From: Flavobacteriales bacterium
Lineage (GTDB): Bacteria; Bacteroidota; Bacteroidia; Flavobacteriales_D; Crocinitomicaceae
Direction of reading: 5' to 3'
Length of the DNA stretch: 64,000 nucleotides
Assembly: GCA_947500875.1 (NCBI GenBank)
Contig: CANMUN010000007.1
Location: 2,244-66,243, forward strand
A model generated the notes under the pieces. That model was not told the origin of the DNA and did not search any database. It saw nothing but the letters and a program-made list of their open reading frames with translations. Each line of letters starts with the position of its first letter. Position 1 is the stretch's first letter. Positions 31,228 through 35,490 of the stretch are shown in pieces. Both the position numbers and the translations under genes were made by a program.

Positions 31228-34200
31228 TTGAAAGAACGTATAGCATCGGAGGTATTAAAGGGCAGTGGGGTGGATGGTCCTGTTCTCGAGCATATCTTCG
31301 CCTTTCTTTATTTACTGGATCTTGAAAGTCCCCTCGACGAGAGTTATTACCTGAAACACGTAATTCCTCGTTCGGATGGCACGAAGAGGATATTATTCGA
31401 ACCCAAACCCGTGCTTAAAGCACTTCAGCAAGAACTTTTGCAGGTTTTGTATGATGTTTTGGAGAAGCCTCAGCCTTACACCGAATACTACAGGTTTCAA
31501 CAAAAACACCTATTGAGCCCTTGTGCCACGGCGTATCGACCGAAAATAAGCGTGATACATAATGCGAATTTTCACCTTGGAAATGAGGTAGTATTAAAGG
31601 TAGATATTCAAGATTTTTTTGGGAGTATTCCCGTGGTTAATATGAAGTCCACGTGGGTGGAGCTGCTGTATTTCTGCTCGAACCGGCTCATTCAATCGGG
31701 ACTCTTAGTCCACCGAATGAAGCGCGAGTTTGTTGCGGAGGTCGTCAACACTTTGGCGGAAAAAATCATCTGCATTACCTCCCTGAACGGGGCCTTGCCG
31801 CAGGGGAGCCCAACGAGTGGCGCCATCGCGAATTTGTACATGGTTCAATTGGACCGTAAAATCCTCCATTACAGCGTGCGAAATCGCTTGAATTATTCGC
31901 GGTACTCCGATGATATGACTTTTTCGGGGGGGGCTGAGGATTTGAAAACAGGAAAGATCCTCCATTTTTTAAACGGTTTACTGGGGCGCAACGGCCTCTG
32001 TTTGAAACGTTCTAAAACCCAAGTGTTGCGCAAGCACAAGCGGCAAACGGTAACTGGGATTGTCGTTAATGCATCAAAGAACGCTGGAAGAACCTATCAA
32101 CGAAGCGTGCGGCAATCCATGCATTATTTCAAAAAATTTGGAAAGGAACACGCGCTGCGTACCCATCCAACTTTGGACGCATTTCTCCGAGAAATAACAG
32201 GGCAAGTAGCTTGGATTCTCCAAGTGCAAAAGTCAAATTCGGAATTTCTACGTTACAAGGCAGAACTGAACATTATTAGCCGTTTTCATCGACAAGGGAA
32301 ACCTGTTGCTGAGGCAATGGATTATTTGCGGAGTTTGGTACAACAGGCAGAGCAATGGAAGGCAAACGAAACCGTGGTGATAGGAGGCTTGGAATGGAAA
32401 AAGGAATCCGAAGTCTATGAAGGAGAGGACATGGATGGAATTTATACCTTTCAGCGACGGGGCCAACAGCGTTCGTTTTTTACCCGAGAAGCCCTCGAAA
32501 AGTACCTAAAAAATCATCCCGAATGGAGGTTGCCTACCTTGCACGAGTATGAGCGGTATTTTGACGAAACGCGGTACCATGACCGAATCCAATTGGGATT
32601 GACCTTGCCGAGCGATCCCCGGTATAATGGGATTGTTAACGGCACGGAATTCCTCCATTTTAATCGGGTTGCTGCCTACTGGACGAGTGAACTCCGTCCT
32701 AGAAAGACGCTTACCAAGGCTAAAAACCGAGTTGGACGAAAAGTCTTGTGCGTCGCTGCTAAAAATTGGCCTATACATCGTCATTTTGCGAAAATTCGTT
32801 GCGACCTGTCCTACGTAAGGCATGATCATGTAATGGACCTACGCGTTCCGGTGAATGTGCCAGGAACCAAGGAATATAGTTCTTCCTCCGACGATACCCA
32901 AGTGCTCTTGCCGGAAGAAGCTTTCTCGGTAAAATTGGTGCGAGAAATAAGGCCCAATGATCCCTTGACCAATTTTCAAGGTACGGAATTTGCCTTAAGG
33001 AAATTAGCCACGAGCAGGTACACGACGAATTTTGAGGGACTTCATATCGCGGATATACCTGTTGAAATTTTGTCGGAATGGAAATCTTCGTCCATGCTGT
33101 TTTCCAATAATCAAATCGAGCACTTCGACCTTCGGAATGTTCCTCCTGTGAAGCTCCTAAATTTGGAAAACAACCGTTTAAAAGGGTTCGATTTTACCAC
33201 CTTGCCCCCCGGGTTACAGCATTTGATGCTCAGAGGCAACCCAGGACTGAAGGGAGCGGAAATTCCTTGGTCTCAATTGTTGAGGCAACTGCACGAGTTG
33301 AGCTTAGATGACTTACAGGATTTAGTACGCACGATGCCGCTGGAATCGATCTATTTGCAGGCCTTAGGTGGGGAAGTTTGGACTATCCTTGAAAACGAAC
33401 AGGAGTTAGATGCATTGATCGGACAACAAAAGCCGGTAAGCCATTTATTGGTTCGGTATCGAGTAGGGGTTGATGCCTTGGATGCAAAGACCTTATTCGA
33501 GAAATTGAACCGTATTGCTCCAAAACATTTGTACGTTTGTTTTGAGCCCCAAGATGAAGGGTTACGACGTCGATTGGATCGCTTGAAATCCGTGACATCC
33601 TTATGGGAAAAGGAGATAGAAGAACTTGATGGGTATGTCAAAAACCTTGCTTCACAAAAGGATATTGAAACGCGTGTAACCTTATTTCCAGAACATTTAG
33701 CCGACAACAGGATTCAGCATCTTATTATTGATTTTTCGTGGTTGCCGAACCTTTGTTTTGAAGGTGATTTTCGGATCAAGCCCGATAGTTATCACTTGTT
33801 ACATCCTGGAATACCTACCCTGCTTCTCCCAGCGACAAGTCAGCGTTTTCATCGTCCGACGGTTTTGATAAAAGCTATTGGAAATAAGATAGTTCCTGCC
33901 CAAAATGATTTTCCTGAATCGGTGAGCCTTGATGTACGCTATCCTCTCGGCAAGACGCATCCTAAAATCCGTTTGTCCAACCTACATACCTTGGTGCCGA
34001 TGCGTCAGGAACACGTGGGAGACTTGGTTTTAGTGCTCAGTGAAAACATCAGCAAACGATTGGAAGTGGGACGCATAAAAGAGGTTTACCCGAGGGCCTA
34101 TGAACTTAAAAGAAACCTGAAGAATTGGGTGAGTTTAATAGGGTATAATACCGATAAAATAGCCTTTCGTAAACGTATTTCATCGATGCCCTTGTTAGGT

Positions 34201-35490
34201 CTTTCTTTGCGATTCGATGTGTACAGCTTGAGCTTTCCCATTGAAACGGTATCAAAAATCAACCGTTTTGGGCCCATGAACCTTGCTTGGGATCCTCATG
34301 AAGGTGTTTTAAAATACAACGAAACTGAAGTAAAGCGATTTTTATTTGAGGATAGTCCTGTTGCTGAAGTTGCTTTTCTCAAAATTTTCGCCAATAAAAG
34401 TCCTACGCCTCCAGCTCGAGTATGTGATTCCCAAGGCAAGAGGAATATGAATTTGCCTTATGTAATTCGTAGGAACGTATATGCTACTCGAGCATTCGAT
34501 CGAAGTGAAACCATAGCTGCTCTTAGAACCGGTGAAAGGCTAGCGATTTCCTTGCCCAAACCTTATCGACGGGATCGAGAAATAATGCTTGCAGCGGTGG
34601 AAGCGAATCCTTTCGCCATGGCTTTTGCCCACAAAGCCTTGAAGCAAGATGCAGGATTTATCTTGGAGGCGATGAACATTAGCGTGCGTACCTTGGTGTT
34701 TCTCTCGAAGGATCTGTTCAAAAGCCGAAACCATCCAAACAGTGCCCTTCAACAAGTGTTGGATGCTCTTATAAAACGTTTCAATCCTGAAGATTTTAAT
34801 TTCATTGTAGGTCGTTTATCGAGGCACATTAATATTGAAAAGGAGCCGGTTTATCGCTTCGTTTTAGAACCGAAGCCTTTGGACTCAAGTGCTGTTTTAA
34901 TGTCCTTCGAACAGGAAAAAAAGATCCTTAATAACCGTTTCTGCCAACGATCAGGTATGTACAAACCCATTCGCGGTTATTTCTTTAAAGAAGCTGAACG
35001 TCGTGGATTCATCAATGTTAACGGTTATTTTAATGATTTTTGTAAAGCGCTTGAAAACAAAGATGATGTAACCTTTCTTGATCTCAGTTTTAAGGCAGTA
35101 GAGACCCTTTATGAGTTGGAAAATTTACCTCATTTAAAGGTGTTGAAGTTAACCGAAAGTAAGTTGATGAACAGCCTACCGGTTTTAAATTCCTTGGAGG
35201 AATTGAACGTCAATCGTGTTGCCAATTTTTGGAGTTACCATGAGGGCAATACAATGCATCAACGGTTCCCGAACCTTAAGCGTTTGGAAACCAAGTTTAT
35301 CTATGTTAATATGCTGTATATTGCCGATTTAGTCGTCCACCATCCTTGCTTGGAGCACCTTTCCATTTCGGTAACCTATGCAGATGAATTAGAGGAAATC
35401 AATGCGATAATCGAGAAAGTAAAGGCCCTTGGAAAGGTCATTGAAATCGTTTTGGATAAGTCGGAGTATATTGGTGAATTACCTTTTTAA
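31228..35490 (+). CDS. retron-type reverse transcriptase fused to FISUMP/DUF1566-like, leucine-rich-repeat and DUF4116-like regions (1420 aa)
   Basis: TTG start. This is the first start codon after the in-frame stop at 31198.

RT motifs:
- NANFH (NAxxH), nt 31561-31575
- VDIQDFFGSI
- LPQGSPTSGAIAN
- YSDD, nt 31903-31914
- QTVTGIVVN (VTG), nt 32050-32058

C-terminal regions:
- aa ~380-490: GLEW...WRLPTLHEYE...AAYWTSE
- aa ~600-700: LRRs
- aa ~1113-1165: DREIMLAAVEANPFAMAFAHKALKQDAGFILEAM
- aa ~1280-1385: LRR-like. Confidence 0.85.
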   Translation: MKERIASEVLKGSGVDGPVLEHIFAFLYLLDLESPLDESYYLKHVIPRSDGTKRILFEPKPVLKALQQELLQVLYDVLEKPQPYTEYYRFQQKHLLSPCATAYRPKISVIHNANFHLGNEVVLKVDIQDFFGSIPVVNMKSTWVELLYFCSNRLIQSGLLVHRMKREFVAEVVNTLAEKIICITSLNGALPQGSPTSGAIANLYMVQLDRKILHYSVRNRLNYSRYSDDMTFSGGAEDLKTGKILHFLNGLLGRNGLCLKRSKTQVLRKHKRQTVTGIVVNASKNAGRTYQRSVRQSMHYFKKFGKEHALRTHPTLDAFLREITGQVAWILQVQKSNSEFLRYKAELNIISRFHRQGKPVAEAMDYLRSLVQQAEQWKANETVVIGGLEWKKESEVYEGEDMDGIYTFQRRGQQRSFFTREALEKYLKNHPEWRLPTLHEYERYFDETRYHDRIQLGLTLPSDPRYNGIVNGTEFLHFNRVAAYWTSELRPRKTLTKAKNRVGRKVLCVAAKNWPIHRHFAKIRCDLSYVRHDHVMDLRVPVNVPGTKEYSSSSDDTQVLLPEEAFSVKLVREIRPNDPLTNFQGTEFALRKLATSRYTTNFEGLHIADIPVEILSEWKSSSMLFSNNQIEHFDLRNVPPVKLLNLENNRLKGFDFTTLPPGLQHLMLRGNPGLKGAEIPWSQLLRQLHELSLDDLQDLVRTMPLESIYLQALGGEVWTILENEQELDALIGQQKPVSHLLVRYRVGVDALDAKTLFEKLNRIAPKHLYVCFEPQDEGLRRRLDRLKSVTSLWEKEIEELDGYVKNLASQKDIETRVTLFPEHLADNRIQHLIIDFSWLPNLCFEGDFRIKPDSYHLLHPGIPTLLLPATSQRFHRPTVLIKAIGNKIVPAQNDFPESVSLDVRYPLGKTHPKIRLSNLHTLVPMRQEHVGDLVLVLSENISKRLEVGRIKEVYPRAYELKRNLKNWVSLIGYNTDKIAFRKRISSMPLLGLSLRFDVYSLSFPIETVSKINRFGPMNLAWDPHEGVLKYNETEVKRFLFEDSPVAEVAFLKIFANKSPTPPARVCDSQGKRNMNLPYVIRRNVYATRAFDRSETIAALRTGERLAISLPKPYRRDREIMLAAVEANPFAMAFAHKALKQDAGFILEAMNISVRTLVFLSKDLFKSRNHPNSALQQVLDALIKRFNPEDFNFIVGRLSRHINIEKEPVYRFVLEPKPLDSSAVLMSFEQEKKILNNRFCQRSGMYKPIRGYFFKEAERRGFINVNGYFNDFCKALENKDDVTFLDLSFKAVETLYELENLPHLKVLKLTESKLMNSLPVLNSLEELNVNRVANFWSYHEGNTMHQRFPNLKRLETKFIYVNMLYIADLVVHHPCLEHLSISVTYADELEEINAIIEKVKALGKVIEIVLDKSEYIGELPF

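Follow-up and report, generated by a model that had tools for sequence, protein, structure and literature searches.

A retron-type reverse transcriptase fusion heads a conserved five-part cassette with a structured RNA in freshwater Flavobacteriales

We analysed a 64,000-nt stretch of contig CANMUN010000007.1 (assembly GCA_947500875.1, Flavobacteriales bacterium), in the following called the window, to which all coordinates refer unless another locus is named. On its forward strand (+), an open reading frame (ORF) of 1420 codons (31228-35490) encodes a reverse transcriptase (RT) with a long C-terminal tail, i.e., the RT-fusion. We observe that this gene heads a conserved five-part cassette: the RT-fusion is followed by the genes of a leucine-rich repeat (LRR) protein, of a MoxR-type AAA+ ATPase and of a DUF2201 protein with VWA and zincin-like parts, and the unit ends with a structured RNA. 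We consider it fairly likely that the locus is an undescribed retron-type system made of these five fixed parts and working by the mechanism proposed below; the cassette is probably an anti-phage system.

The RT-fusion and its conserved partner genes

The ORF of the RT-fusion opens with a TTG start codon and shows no internal stop. A search of 5.8 billion protein clusters yields 17 relatives with 32-83% identity. Apart from one truncated fragment, these measure 1372-1462 aa and align to 94-100% of the query. Their sources are metagenome-assembled genomes (MAGs) of Flavobacteriia, Flavobacteriales and Crocinitomicaceae as well as lake metagenomes; no copy of the cassette was found by tblastn in plasmid and phage collections. 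Since relatives from independent samples and assemblers align over 94-100%, the RT-fusion is not an assembly artefact. An earlier note on the window had raised the worry of an assembly error or frameshift, which can be dismissed given the intact ORF and the full architecture shared by the relatives.

The RT domain (fingers, palm and thumb) covers aa 1-345 (31228-32262, +), as given by PADLOC, NCBIfam and PDB profile matches together with its motifs. Pfam RVT_1 matches aa 46-279, and the PADLOC retron RT models align to aa 27-348 over nearly their full profile length, led by RT_III-A (227 bits) and the Ec107-like model (224 bits). Among NCBIfam models, those of retron Ec67 and St85 match best, and a profile search of PDB ranks solved retron RTs first. 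We judged residue conservation on an alignment of 18 sequences; domain counts given below as x/18 refer to members of this family. Here, YSDD (226-229) and VTG (275-277) are invariant, while NANFH (112-116, the NAxxH motif) is conserved to at least 90%. Retron RTs are defined by the NAxxH motif of region X and the VTG motif of region Y, together with the catalytic YxDD (Mestre et al. 2020, PMC7736814). Judged by both its motifs and its clade, the RT of the fusion thus groups with the retrons. That is, the retron-like RT that the earlier note had placed in the first ~300 aa stands with regard to its type and not with regard to its length, which is ~345 aa by the PADLOC span.

Downstream of the RT-fusion, the LRR protein (~420 aa), the MoxR AAA_5 ATPase (~381 aa) and the DUF2201 protein (~390 aa) follow in fixed order, overlapping or spaced by no more than 12 nt. 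This order is seen in the loci L001 and L003-L008 as well as in the loci with DNA from our genome and metagenome scans, at RT identities of 27-83%. The flanks of the cassette vary between distant loci, and the upstream genes are not conserved. In the window, the LRR protein (421 aa, 35500-36765, +; Pfam LRR_8 and LRR_4) comes directly after the RT gene, as in all loci. We also considered it as a copy of the fusion's own LRRs and rejected this, their similarity being merely at the level of generic repeats. The start of the MoxR gene (381 aa, 36762-37907, +; Pfam AAA_5) overlaps the stop of the LRR gene by 4 nt; its product carries a Walker A (GLGKT) and a Walker B motif (LLLDD) and shows 62-98% identity among loci. 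The DUF2201 protein (389 aa, 37914-39083, +; Pfam DUF2201_N and DUF2201) combines an N-terminal zincin-like metallopeptidase (HEVLH) with a C-terminal VWA domain, whose metal-ion-dependent adhesion site (MIDAS) reads DTSGS. Within 14 homologues, RT-less ones included, H72, E73, H76 and D267-S271 are invariant. With Walker A/B in the AAA_5 protein and a MIDAS in the VWA protein beside it, the two genes constitute a MoxR-VWA couple.

All three accessory genes are collinear with the RT in every locus, i.e., they behave as a co-evolving accessory set with a putative effector role. The earlier note had hinted that the effector function might lie in the unassigned middle region or in the MoxR/VWA pair. 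Our results place the pair in the same unit, since it accompanies the RT in every locus with invariant HExxH and MIDAS residues; the effector role itself is a conjecture that we take up below. Comparing the window with its closest relative, locus L007, MoxR (98% identity) and DUF2201 (94%) are followed by the RT-fusion (83%) and the LRR protein (77%). Within the fusion, aa 961-1110 (53%) and LRR2 (69%) are the fastest segments. Such fast evolution of the LRR parts and of aa 961-1110 is expected if those parts face pressure to change.

A structured RNA downstream of the DUF2201 gene

The ~215-nt gap 3' of the DUF2201 gene aligns in all lineages, with a conservation far above expectation. Based on conservation, covariation and fold, it contains a structured non-coding RNA (ncRNA) of ~165 nt (39098-39264, +), which is our candidate for a retron msr-msd. 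Searches with nhmmer and a covariance model detect this RNA in more than 20 loci, always directly 3' of DUF2201 and on the same strand, and it is present in every cassette locus with DNA at that position. Although built from three lineages only, the covariance model R1 also detects the remaining ones (E = 7e-18 to 1e-4) with correctly aligned helices. With regard to simple pattern scans for the RNA, nhmmer identified 32/37 genome matches as chance and left at least 5/17 metagenome matches unconfirmed.

For the annotated helices, 94.1% of the cells are paired compared to 35-52% when partners are slid, and the covariation score of 0.472 (0.06-0.10 with slid partners) was matched by none of 500 shuffles. 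In the terminal helix, which we name a1/a2, 8/9 base pairs show changes on both sides. This is complemented by the pairing energies of the 5' and 3' arms: within a lineage, the two arms give the most stable pairing (-15 to -20 kcal/mol), while cross-lineage combinations mostly reach -3 to -13 kcal/mol. The RNA is assigned to the + strand because the observed G-U pairs fit that strand only. The fold of the copy in the window has a z-score of -4.4.

Read from 5' to 3' on the + strand, the RNA comprises a1 (GCGCGG, 39103-39108), an invariant UUUUAGC (39116-39122) placed 3-6 nt past a1, the covarying 8-bp hairpin P2 (39128-39146), a long, variable and bulged hairpin of ~50 nt (about 39150-39199), a conserved GAAUUAGAAUU between this hairpin and the next, hairpin P4 (39214-39238) followed by AAAGUA, and finally a2 (CCGCGC, 39254-39259). 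An intrinsic terminator with a 12-bp stem and T9 (39260-39296, +) directly follows; it is the strongest terminator-like site within 30500-39500 and is kept in the alignments. In a retron msr-msd, the terminal inverted repeats hybridise, and the transcript contains between one and three msr hairpins as well as a variable msd stem (PMC7736814). The predicted layout of our RNA, including its a1/a2 helix, matches this description, and the G of UUUUAGC is a candidate for the priming site of the multicopy single-stranded DNA (msDNA).

Upstream of the RT gene, alignments of the window with its two close relatives L007 and L008 show no conserved non-coding element, nor did inverted-repeat scans of the window, L003 and L004 reveal a shared one. 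An A-rich segment of 55 nt at the start of a KTSC gene (30647-30701) shares 67% identity with the RNA's 5' portion (E = 0.003 in the window), which is probably a chance match.

Tail modules, RT-less triads and genomic setting

Searching NCBIfam at E <= 0.01, only RT models match the fusion. In its tail, a DUF4116 repeat (aa 1116-1163, 34573-34716, +) is confirmed, for which PF13475 scores 30.7 bits, above the gathering score of 24.9. It is detected in 17/18 members (best E = 9e-16) and sits within a modelled helical region that extends to about aa 1197. For the C-terminal LRR block (aa ~1275-1407, 35050-35448, +), the family profile matches the BRI1 LRR structure at aa 1280-1353 (E = 3e-6), Pfam LRR_4 is found in 9/18 members, and a Foldseek search with the AlphaFold2 (AF2) model of the whole C-terminal part returns LRR proteins only. 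The signal for an internal LRR block (aa ~584-694, 32977-33309, +) is weak but consistent, i.e., it comprises profile matches to solved LRR structures at E about 0.007, an Asn ladder with invariant N628 and N649, and a confident AF2 model of the region.

Between RT and internal LRRs, a possible DUF1566/Lcl_C (C-type-lectin-like) domain is weakly indicated at aa ~385-490 (32380-32697, +). Here, PF07603 reaches 18 bits against a cut-off of 34.9, with E <= 0.05 in 9/18 members. In an hhalign comparison with a genuine member of Lcl_C, both the WRLPT..E and the YWTS motif are aligned (E = 5e-4) with a probability of only 31%, and the AF2 model of the fusion is poor across aa 467-565, which overlaps this stretch.

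We can thus revisit the module calls of the earlier note. Its DUF4116-like repeat (aa ~1113-1165) and its C-terminal LRRs (aa ~1280-1385) are borne out, and its LRRs at aa ~600-700 receive the weak yet consistent backing described above. Its FISUMP/DUF1566 assignment is weakly supported, with a Pfam score below the cut-off. Its general view of a fused part built from binding and repeat modules also agrees with our results: two LRR blocks, DUF4116 and the possible lectin-like domain make up much of the tail, and no recognisable enzyme is joined to the RT.

The note had further remarked that aa ~720-1110 contain no motif that could be named, on which Pfam, profile and fold searches agree. We refer to aa 700-1110 (33325-34557, +) as the orphan region. 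It has no Pfam match, and an exhaustive hidden Markov model (HMM) search of 1.84 billion representatives with a 13-sequence profile gave 14 matches, of which 13 are family members or fragments thereof and the other (P0026) is weak (E = 3e-4). A dedicated AF2 model (predicted local distance difference test, pLDDT, 74.5; predicted template modelling score, pTM, 0.76), whose first 260 residues are mostly above a pLDDT of 85, predicts an alpha/beta domain, then a beta-rich domain and a fast-evolving tail. Given this model, Foldseek reports nothing significant in PDB (best E = 0.7) or BFVD (best E = 1.7). Residues D835, S837, W838, H859, S871, H875 and K882 of the beta-rich part are invariant. Because of the polar ones among these (all but W838), the orphan region may be enzymatic.

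The DUF2201 family itself is large (887 matches at E <= 1e-10) and also occurs without the RT. In the loci L063, L064 and L065, we find triads of LRR, AAA_5 and DUF2201 genes in one operon that lack the RT-fusion. L063 is a metagenome contig, L064 carries a protein named by NCBI from a Flavobacteriaceae MAG, and L065 belongs to Polynucleobacter. Compared to the cassette, the identity is 49-59% for MoxR and 41-49% for DUF2201, while the triads' LRR proteins are larger (513-907 aa). The N-terminus of the cassette's LRR protein resembles the LRR protein of one RT-less triad. When model R1 was applied with filters off, no RNA was detected at the triads (best 13 bits, E = 0.5). That is, the RNA co-occurs exclusively with the RT-fusion and not with DUF2201 as such.

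Since the RNA is present with the RT and absent from the triads, the triad constitutes an independent module, and RT plus RNA a second one. The locus is thus recast by the existence of RT-less triads and, on the available sequences, is best read as a retron core (RT and ncRNA) that was grafted onto a pre-existing LRR-MoxR-DUF2201 triad. Such a joining of two modules fits a view of retrons as evolving in modular fashion (PMC7736814). The RT-less triads had been missed by the earlier note, as had the fixed 421-aa LRR partner and the msr-msd-like RNA.

The neighbours of the triads include WGR, M41 peptidase and ATP-dependent DNA ligase genes. On the flanks of the Polynucleobacter triad (L065, 1018-12167) lie genes for an FtsH-like M41 peptidase and a 70-aa WGR protein, with a ligase gene nearby. 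In L064 (1-10170), too, an ATP-dependent DNA ligase gene is close to the triad, next to which a 1662-aa AAA_16 (STAND-like) protein is encoded.

Some lineages extend or alter the cassette. L001 (5713-10004) and L005 (5451-7990) have an additional gene of 350-450 aa on the 5' side of the operon and a divergent gene of ~207 aa. In L001, these are joined by a 565-aa AAA ATPase and a sigma-70-like gene; the gene set of the P0006 locus is the same. These extra genes are a lineage-specific extension of the cassette; the 350-450-aa gene was rejected as a core part, for it is common to L001 and L005 (28% identity) and found neither in the window nor in other lineages. In L003, a second and distinct pair of a VWA_2/Rv0959-like and an AAA_5 gene (7167-9740) lies directly 5' of the RT-fusion, separated from it by 260 nt that hold two small hairpins. 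The DUF2201 gene of L001 (16839-17865) is split over two frames. We ascribe this to a frameshift or sequencing error because the copy in L061, another contig with an identical RNA core, is whole.

With regard to the window's own neighbourhood, the cassette lies in a defence-island-like setting, as the downstream region contains three GmrSD-like genes, a Fic/Bro-N gene, a RhuM gene and a trio of HATPase_c_3, ResIII and PLD genes. The GmrSD-like genes (DUF262/DUF1524-type, one with DUF7834; 40318-43807 and 54250-56409, both -) are likely modification-dependent restriction genes. The trio consists of consecutive genes for a HATPase_c_3 (MORC-like) ATPase, a ResIII/DEAD helicase and a weakly PLD-like protein (49891-54249, +) and is a candidate for a separate defence system. 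Between these, a Fic/DOC protein with Bro-N (+) stands beside a RhuM-family gene (-) within 45220-47123, which are signatures of mobile elements or defence islands.

Directly upstream, 22 nt 5' of the RT gene, a 124-aa protein (30831-31205, +) has a ribosomal L7/L12 C-terminal domain (Pfam, 52 bits) alongside a weak match to DUF1737; a free-standing domain of this kind beside a retron is odd. We do not count the gene as core because it is kept in L007 and replaced by a GYF_2 gene on the opposite strand in L008; beyond the window and L007, other loci have no or another gene at this place. Further upstream, a DnaJ + KTSC protein (30201-30731, -) has homologues of 81-92% identity near the cassette in L003, L007 and L008, which could reflect synteny or a loose association. 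Past the RNA, two small ORFs of 151 aa (39299-39754, -) and 148 aa (39835-40281, +) show no Pfam match. The former shares the bidirectional terminator, and a copy with 46% identity stands beside the cassette in L004, L033 and L051. In other lineages, this position is taken by small convergent genes without relation to it, including a PLDc_2 nuclease in L001 and the P0006 locus. We also rejected the 151-aa ORF as a core part, since only some lineages conserve it and the small convergent genes of L001 and L006 show no relation to it.

Comparison with known systems and alternative explanations

The current classification of retrons distinguishes 13 types on the basis of RT clade, ncRNA and effector (PMC7736814). 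Among these, fused RTs are known from type I-C (RT-Toprim), VII-A1 (RT-DUF3800), XI (RT-protease) and XII (RT-TIR) (Mestre et al. 2020, PMC7736814). Like these RT-effector retrons, our cassette has an RT of the retron clade with NAxxH, VTG and a C-terminal extension, a dedicated structured ncRNA with terminal inverted repeats, and extra or fused putative effectors. Unlike them, its extension comprises ~1075 aa of repeat and binding modules plus the orphan region instead of one enzyme domain, three fixed genes are added, and the ncRNA comes last in the operon, behind four genes. By score, the RT models that fit best (227 and 224 bits) are those of type III-A and Retron-Eco5 (Ec107). Type III retrons have a PRTase-like partner and optionally a winged-helix protein (PMC7736814), whereas the cassette is without a PRTase gene and its RT carries a giant tail. 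The accessory set fits none of the 13 types (Mestre 2020) and is matched by no PADLOC model. An LRR/MoxR/VWA accessory set is also not described there, as leucine, VWA and AAA are absent from its text. Our literature search retrieved no paper that pairs a retron with DUF4116, DUF2201 or 'type XIV', and of the four retrieved papers that mention DUF2201, none deals with its function in title or abstract.

In conflict systems, MoxR-vWA couples have been suggested to act as thresholding chaperones (Kaur et al. 2020, PMC7159879). Our cassette resembles these systems in that a MoxR AAA+ ATPase and a VWA protein are placed beside variable or sensor-like proteins. Some of them are even linked to an RT, namely that of a diversity-generating retroelement (DGR), which diversifies an effector with an FGS domain of C-type lectin fold (PMC7159879). 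The cassette differs by its retron-type RT, its msr-msd-like RNA and the lack of a variable repeat. Furthermore, its VWA protein has an N-terminal HExxH (DUF2201_N), and DUF2201 is absent from that paper. A further close system is that of the RT-less triads with homologous MoxR and DUF2201 proteins beside an LRR protein in one operon, which, unlike the cassette, have neither RT-fusion nor RNA.

Several observations weigh against an undescribed retron-type defence system. The RNA lies ~3.6 kb past the end of the RT gene with three genes in between, while the msr-msd of retrons is contiguous with the RT gene (PMC7736814). Its variable hairpin is short for an msd, and a 44-nt deletion in L007 (9843-9965) removes this hairpin completely with all other RNA elements retained; that is, either the L007 RNA is a decaying copy or the variable hairpin is dispensable. 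Rfam provides no match to the RNA at gathering threshold and, up to E <= 10, none beyond noise. None of the PADLOC models matches the LRR, MoxR or DUF2201 partner. Naming the peptidase as effector is a guess on our side, and the orphan middle domain could take this role instead. Finally, the family is confined to freshwater Flavobacteriales, and its close relatives are syntenic; given this narrow range and synteny, vertical inheritance together with a housekeeping role is possible.

Some of these points could be explained if the RNA were a regulatory element of the 3' untranslated region (3'-UTR) or a small RNA. In this case, the RT would have no dedicated ncRNA, i.e., it would use protein priming or other templates, or would play a purely structural role in a complex chaperoned by MoxR-VWA. 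The distance between RNA and RT gene, the abutting terminator, the loss of the variable hairpin in one relative and the missing match to the Rfam retron msr families are in accordance with this. On the other hand, we find the RNA only where the RT-fusion is and not at RT-less triads with homologous DUF2201. Moreover, the covarying terminal a1/a2 helix is a retron hallmark, and both catalytic and retron-specific motifs of the RT are invariant. We therefore regard the 3'-UTR explanation as unlikely.

The RNA might also serve as template of a genuine retron that is not directed against phages. The cassette would then have a housekeeping or regulatory function specific to this lineage of freshwater Flavobacteriales, e.g., in MoxR/VWA-assisted assembly or proteolytic regulation with msDNA as a cofactor. 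The narrow taxonomic range, the synteny of close relatives, the missing plasmid and phage copies and the accessory genes without PADLOC match would all suit such a role. It is less compatible with flanks that differ among distant loci, with the many defence genes around the cassette in the window and with the fast evolution of the LRR parts. Characterised retrons function in phage defence. In addition, retron types pair their RT with putative effectors (Mestre et al. 2020, PMC7736814). Taken together, we see a housekeeping role as rather improbable.

We also considered a DGR-like system; here, the RNA would be the template repeat with which the RT introduces diversity into the LRR modules or the lectin-like (DUF1566) domain. 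DUF1566 and C-type-lectin folds are frequent DGR targets, and DGRs are linked to MoxR-vWA systems (PMC7159879). The RT, however, scores as retron and not as DGR, and the window contains no template/variable repeat of the RNA, as the best off-target is the 55-nt, 67% match at the start of an unrelated gene. Furthermore, the lectin-like call is weak in itself. Given the retron-type RT and the lack of such repeats in the window, we reject the DGR explanation as very improbable. Least of all does the long ORF result from an assembly or frameshift artefact that fuses separate genes, a practically negligible option for which nothing was found and which is contradicted by the same full-length architecture across independent samples and assemblers, down to 32% identity.

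We thus favour a retron-type system built from the five parts of the cassette, for which we propose the following course of events. The operon would be transcribed together with the ~165-nt RNA at its 3' end. By homology to known retrons, the RT should recognise this RNA, whose ends pair as a1/a2, and should copy part of it to msDNA, primed by the 2'-OH of a guanosine that is possibly the G of UUUUAGC. The ~1075-aa tail (lectin-like, LRR, orphan, DUF4116, LRR) might act as scaffold and sensor and might, together with the separate LRR protein, restrain the VWA/zincin peptidase. A phage-derived trigger could then alter the msDNA or bind to the LRR surfaces, upon which the MoxR AAA+ ATPase may remodel the complex via ATP hydrolysis such that the HExxH peptidase is released or activated. 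As an outcome, cell growth might be halted or phage proteins cleaved, and the infection would be aborted. The steps after msDNA synthesis are speculative.

A more far-reaching version of this proposal, which we put forward only tentatively and consider somewhat doubtful as a whole, would make the cassette a new class of retron: msDNA synthesis would be coupled to an LRR receptor and a MoxR-VWA-zincin switch, the template RNA would come last in the operon, and the orphan domain of ~400 aa would have a novel fold. In such a bacterial pattern-recognition retron, fast-evolving LRR surfaces of both the RT and a partner protein would sense the phage, and the AAA+ chaperone would then unleash the metallopeptidase.

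If our interpretation holds, the cassette would represent an additional retron type, distinguished by an RT fusion larger than any seen to date, by three accessory genes and by an unusually placed ncRNA. Because this ncRNA is far from the RT gene, surveys restricted to the surroundings of RTs would miss it. The RNA is compact (~165 nt) with well-defined helices such that the predicted msDNA is directly testable. The cassette would further tie retrons to the widespread, uncharacterised LRR-MoxR-DUF2201 triads and would provide a first functional handle on DUF2201 and the MoxR-VWA 'thresholding' modules. If true, LRR sensors on a nucleic-acid-synthesising enzyme would constitute a new architecture of bacterial immunity, in parallel to the LRR receptors of eukaryotes.

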